Sequence record: PZ445134.1
Strand: one strand, 5' to 3'
Length of the DNA stretch: 64,000 bases
DNA from: a phage
The position numbers and the translations under genes are program-made. Shown here piece by piece: positions 5,819 to 6,118 of the stretch (position 1 is the stretch's first letter; each line of letters opens with the position of its first letter). The notes below the pieces were generated by a model, which was not told the DNA's origin, did not search any database, and saw nothing but the letters and a program-made list of their open reading frames with translations.

Positions 5819-5990
5819 TTAACCATTCAATTGCCTGGTCGACGTTATCAAATATACTGCCGTCCAACCATTCTTCATGTTCATAGTCCAGCACATCAAT
5901 ACCGAACCGTCCATTTACTAAAGGCCATACTACAAACAAATATTCTTTATGCTGTTCGATGGCCTCAATCACTTCATATAATCGTTTCAT
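5799..5990 (-). CDS. hypothetical protein, 63 aa (start lies inside copy 1 of the 77-bp tandem repeat)
   Basis: Track ORF; ATG 5990-5988 preceded by TAA derived from duplicated pseT 3' end. Confidence 0.45.
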   Translation of the reverse strand: MKRLYEVIEAIEQHKEYLFVVWPLVNGRFGIDVLDYEHEEWLDGSIFDNVDQAIEWLNENYVR

Positions 5991-6118
5991 TAAAAATCAC
6001 CATGGTTAACTTGCCAACATTCAACACCGATACGACGCCACTCAATCACTTCATATAATCGTTTCATTAAAAATCACCATGGTTAACTTGCCAACATTCA
6101 ACACCGATACGACGCCAC
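5965..6118. repeat. perfect 2 x 77-bp tandem direct repeat spanning the pseT 3' end and downstream gene start
   Basis: Copy 1 at 5965-6041 and copy 2 at 6042-6118 are identical base for base. Confidence 0.9.

Follow-up and report, generated by a model that had tools for sequence, protein, structure and literature searches.

A perfect 77-bp tandem repeat across the pseT/cd.4 boundary of an RB69-like phage sequence is very probably an untrimmed assembler overlap

The window, that is the whole stretch of 64,000 nucleotides of phage DNA analysed here, is Mosigvirus sequence from an RB69-like phage of the T4 type and is 96-98% identical to RB69-like phages. Over the first 25 kb the identity to SF, NHEP29/36, PHB12 and others is 96-97.5%, and at the pseT locus it reaches up to 97.8%. 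The exact PseT protein was not found in the assembly collection, and thus these collections contain no other assembly of the same strain; the best DNA relatives are 95-98% identical. The pseT locus contains the following features:

5799-5990, minus strand: cd.4-like gene, 63 aa, intact, with an ATG that shares a base with the stop codon before it (TAATG)
5965-6041: copy 1 of the 77-nt unit, the downstream copy as read on the minus strand, leading into the complete cd.4-like gene
5990-6067, minus strand: chimeric open reading frame of 25 aa (MKRLYEVIE plus the 16-residue tail of pseT), a by-product of the repeat
6041-6042: copy-to-copy junction, on the plus strand ...CGACGCCAC / TCAATCAC..., in a second notation ...ACGACGCCAC / TCAATCACTT...
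6042-6118: copy 2 of the 77-nt unit, the upstream copy as read on the minus strand, completing pseT
6067-6966, minus strand: pseT, polynucleotide 5′-kinase/3′-phosphatase, 299 aa, intact (Pfam)

Direct string comparison showed that positions 5965-6041 are identical to positions 6042-6118, so that two copies of 77 nucleotides lie head-to-tail with no spacer. Tandem Repeats Finder, run on the window, reported the same structure (5964..6118, period 77, 2.0 copies, 100% matches, 0 indels, score 310). The perfect 77-bp tandem duplication that the first-pass annotation had described at 5965-6118 is therefore present. Identity at period 77 runs one base further (5964-6041 equals 6041-6118, 78 nt), and the copy borders accordingly have a single nucleotide (C) in common; an extension of at least 1 nt by chance is expected in 44% of cases. 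Scanning all periods from 10 to 600 revealed no second perfect tandem duplication of at least 20 nt in the 64-kb window. An exact match of 77 nucleotides cannot arise by chance.

Both genes that flank the repeat are complete. PseT shows Pfam matches to AAA_33 (E 1e-23) and HAD_PNKP (E 2e-57), and the latter covers profile positions 1-143 of 143 and ends at residue 299. The gene has the same length as in the relatives and is annotated as pseT in RB69; its stop codon TAA overlaps with the start codon of the following open reading frame (TAATG). The downstream gene is named cd.4 in RB69, where pseT and cd.4 share one base, as they do in each copy here. The exact 63-aa cd.4-like protein occurs in 83 blocks of the collection with the precomputed Pfam tag PF26883 (Phage_T4_Y13G), and in all ten places listed out of these 83 blocks its gene lies directly after pseT. 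Read on the minus strand, each copy of the unit comprises the 16 final pseT codons, the overlapping stop and start (TAATG) and nine codons from the beginning of the cd.4-like gene (MKRLYEVIE); the 48 nt, the TAA and the 27 nt, minus the one shared base, add up to 77. The chimeric open reading frame starts at the ATG of the copy that completes pseT and ends with the pseT tail and stop codon of the second copy. Its Pfam similarity is confined to the last 19 positions of HAD_PNKP, and a counterpart was not found in ten contigs from relatives or in an alignment with RB69 and six other phages. The Shine-Dalgarno sequence and the ATG are both doubled by the repeat. The earlier description of the locus thus agrees with the ORF coordinates and the Pfam matches in placing the repeat across the pseT stop and the start of the next gene, and the 25-aa chimera it had listed at 5990..6067 is indeed created by the repeat. 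Its account of the unit was correct for the 16 pseT codons and the TAATG; the downstream part comprises nine codons if the ATG is counted, rather than eight.

Comparison with related phage genomes, which had been proposed as a check, was carried out and returned a single copy throughout. All 150 database records that span the locus have 823-824 nt where the query has 901 nt, i.e., 77 nt fewer. Aligned with RB69 and the six other phages, the window has one clean insertion of 77 nt and no other. Ten contigs that were fetched separately because they encode the same 63-aa protein also carry one copy each, with pseT ending where the cd.4-like gene starts (10/10); in BLAST, the alignment of each of them breaks at window position 6041 and its own 78 nt are used twice. 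A query centred on the junction gave no one-piece match among phage records, only the double use of one 78-nt stretch, and the 40-nt junction sequence was not found in IMG/VR, in 185,579 GTDB species genomes or in JGI metagenomes. This absence from the collections shows that the repeat is not a feature of the lineage, and it fits an artefact and a unique recent event equally well. An RNA element or regulatory repeat was considered and rejected: the unit is coding sequence of two conserved genes, the relatives lack the repeat, and neither an Rfam family at the gathering score nor a tRNA gene was found in the window (1-64000).

Two readings had been offered for the repeat, a very recent event and an assembly artefact. 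In the first, the 77 bp would have been duplicated only lately by replication slippage or illegitimate recombination, and the duplication would be tolerated since the unit holds the pseT stop and the cd.4 start, so that both genes stay intact and a chimeric ORF of 25 aa, translationally coupled, comes to lie between them. T4-type phages do produce tandem duplications in the laboratory; these are likewise head-to-tail direct repeats with functional flanking genes. Both pseT and cd.4 are complete here, and the perfect identity of the copies is compatible with a very young event. Using the gene map of a relative, we calculated that a random 77-nt duplication leaves all coding sequences intact at 19% of positions, a set to which this site belongs, and contains a stop and a start together at 8%. 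As viable real duplications would be enriched at sites that spare genes, the location favours a genuine duplication by at most approximately 5-fold, and since a gene-boundary location is expected at 8-19% of random positions it is weak evidence for selection.

Other properties of the repeat argue against a genuine duplication. At real tandem duplications the microhomology usually amounts to several bases, and nothing constrains their length to exactly 77 nt, whereas here the microhomology of 1 nt is not above chance and the length equals an assembler constant; as a coincidence, exactly 77 would have a probability of about 1 in 100 or less. Homologous recombination is very active in T4, and a direct repeat of 77 nt would be lost through it, so that a real one would be visible only if it were extremely recent. 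None of the relatives shares the repeat, in contrast to what a duplication of some age would show, and the copies have not diverged; signs of age are therefore lacking on both counts. Perfect tandem duplications were absent from 202 kb of relatives, and apart from this repeat none was found in 266 kb of the phage group. Together with the single copy in the 150 locus-spanning records, the ten additional contigs and all junction scans, and with the frequency of untrimmed overlaps in the genus described below, these observations make a genuine duplication unlikely.

The length of the unit points to the second reading. The default k series of SPAdes for 150-nt reads is 21, 33, 55 and 77. In SPAdes output, a circular path becomes a linear contig in which the first k bases recur at the end, and contigs that are neighbours in one de Bruijn graph have an overlap of k too. 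For circularly permuted phage genomes, 77-bp sequences that are identical at the two contig ends have been attributed to SPAdes (PMC9409062), and a mitochondrial contig that began and ended with the same 77 bp was trimmed before it was rotated (PMC8767329). Terminal overlaps of 127 bp derived from the k-mer have been reported as well (PMC5923482, PMC9331655), and the Phage Annotation Guide lists terminal repeats that land in the middle of a sequence as a common submission error (PMC8785237). The repeat described here is exact and perfect, has the length k and comes from a circularly permuted phage, and in these respects it resembles such an artefactual DTR; it differs in that the SPAdes overlap sits at the two ends of a record, while the present repeat is internal and tandem.

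We propose that the repeat is very probably an untrimmed k = 77 assembler overlap, i.e., an artefact of assembly or curation, a reading that rests on sequence comparison. A circularly permuted T4-type genome would have been sequenced with short reads, and its assembly would have come from a de Bruijn-graph program that finished at k = 77, as in SPAdes by default with 150-nt reads. The "circular" path would have been written out in linear form, with the same 77 nt at the start and the end of the contig (an overlap of k would likewise exist between neighbouring contigs), and the overlap would have been left untrimmed. The ends would then have been joined, either because the contig was rotated to a new start, because the record was read as a circle across its origin, or because two contigs were butted together. 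This would place the last 77 and the first 77 nucleotides side by side, with the join probably lying between 6041 and 6042. By chance the join would have fallen on the pseT/cd.4 boundary, and as a consequence neither gene would be interrupted and a 25-aa ORF with no meaning would appear. We judge 77 to be among the likeliest k-mer lengths for an artefact of this kind, and rotation, circular read-through and contig joining are routine steps.

The start points of T4-type records are compatible with such a history. T4-type genomes are circularly permuted, and the records of relatives have been deposited with many different, arbitrary starting points and in either orientation. The window is collinear with RB69 across the origin of the RB69 record, with the end of RB69 aligning to 39167 and RB69 base 1 to 39168; the conventional RB69/T4 origin between rIIB and rIIA thus lies within the window at 39167/39168, which means that the source sequence does not start at the conventional point. 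Physical terminal redundancy or a DTR was rejected as a source of the repeat. Headful packaging of T4-type phages also gives repeated molecule ends and assemblies that close into a circle, but this redundancy is on the kb scale and lies at a different place in each particle, so that it cannot yield a fixed 77-nt repeat at one site.

To see how often assembler overlaps are retained in the genus, we took 200 nt from each end of 13 closely related Mosigvirus GenBank records and determined the longest stretch over which suffix and prefix match exactly. Seven of the 13 records carry an exact untrimmed end overlap:

NHEP10: 127 nt
JQD51: 127 nt
GADS24: 127 nt
SSE1: 111 nt (record flagged circular)
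DCP548: 111 nt
PHB12: 102 nt
308Ecol101PP: 99 nt

In the other six (EP02SG, SF, LNA2, HY126, vB_EQ1, PNJ-6) an end overlap was not found. Each of the seven overlap-bearing records is too long by the length of its own overlap. In JQD51, the duplicated end of the record is annotated as a fragment "similar to DNA polymerase". SSE1 is flagged circular, and reading it across its origin would therefore show a perfect tandem duplication of 111 nt, the same structure as found here. Untrimmed overlaps thus have a base rate of more than 50% in the sampled part of the genus, which argues against a genuine duplication. Some findings count against the artefact. None of the seven overlaps measures 77 nt (0/13 close records; the overlaps found are 99 to 127 nt), and the precedent for exactly this length comes from the literature and not from the sister records. 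In addition, the sister overlaps are terminal and the repeat is internal, so that an extra step has to be assumed.

An artefact could also have arisen in another way, through a mis-join by a different program, hand-editing, polishing or scaffolding, or because the window, as excised, crosses the origin of a circular-flagged record; in the last case, if the ends of the record overlap, the artefact is one of reading the record as well as one in the record. A circular-flagged record with an untrimmed overlap exists in the genus (SSE1, 111 nt), the window lies outside the conventional orientation frame, and the outcome at the sequence level would be the same as for the k = 77 overlap. Yet this is a variant of the main explanation rather than a true rival and still needs a 77-nt end overlap, which leads back to k = 77, and overlaps from long-read assemblers are kb-scale and imperfect rather than perfect 77-mers. 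We regard an artefact of such another origin as highly improbable.

The structure of the repeat, its uniqueness to this sequence, its exact fit to k = 77 and the frequent overlaps in sister records are direct observations. The two copies abut, are 100% identical and have a period equal to the assembler k of 77; the genome is of the circularly permuted type, and the repeat is missing in relatives and independent assemblies, all of which is typical of this artefact. Since the length equals a SPAdes k, the relatives have a single copy, there is practically no microhomology and seven of 13 sister records retain overlaps, an assembly artefact is strongly favoured over a very recent event. The repeat bears no positive mark of a slippage duplication; it almost certainly belongs to a known class of assembly artefact and is no biological feature.

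In the case of an artefact, the sequence overstates the true genome length by 77 bp, pseT and cd.4 have the same arrangement as in RB69, and deleting one 77-nt copy corrects the sequence and removes the spurious 25-aa ORF. This ORF and the "second ribosome entry site" would then not exist in the phage: the duplicated Shine-Dalgarno sequence and ATG are present in the sequence, but the second site noted in the first-pass annotation would be lost together with the extra copy. Should the duplication be genuine after all, which is improbable, it would be days old and caught in the isolate, and the ORF composed of the PseT tail and the Cd.4 head could alter cd.4 expression. The value of the repeat is modest as quality control and none as biology. 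A useful by-product is that more than half of the sampled deposited Mosigvirus genomes retain assembler overlaps. As seven of 13 keep overlaps of 99-127 nt, scans that read such records as circles, or that search for DTRs or tandem duplications, will keep giving a false signal, which would be filtered out by flagging perfect two-copy repeats with a length of 55, 77, 99 or 127.

Several further observations were made in the window and its relatives. At the 3′ end of pseT (6030-6130; alignment A1 columns 60-180) two haplotype patterns occur, e.g., ACTCAAGTAGTTGAAAT versus AACCAGGTTGTGGAAAT; the window and relative L001 share one of them, and RB69 and others share the other. Such a split fits the mosaic recombination that is usual in this genus. 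A DAHP synthase gene (phospho-2-dehydro-3-deoxyheptonate aldolase, 330 aa, 3903-4895, minus strand) is located between cd and a cd.2-like gene. It was found in the fetched relatives (PF00793 there) and is lacking in RB69, whose alignment skips approximately 3906-5001. Part of the genus typically carries this auxiliary metabolic gene.

The record KY703222.1/NC_055718.1 (Escherichia phage phiC120) has 186,570 bp, approximately 18 kb above the ~168-170 kb of its relatives, and the excess may represent retained terminal redundancy or an assembly duplication. In the window, td is an uninterrupted 286-aa ORF and is thus without a group I intron of the kind carried by T4 td. Between frd (DHFR, 15589-16176) and td (14369-15229) lies a 115-aa ORF (15245-15592, minus strand) with no Pfam match. 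The segment of approximately 355 nt that contains it is missing in all ten fetched relatives and, among 500 matching phage records, is complete in only about 18 (SF, NHEP29, NHEP36, PHB12, F2 and others); at the frd/td junction, this ORF is an accessory gene of variable occurrence.
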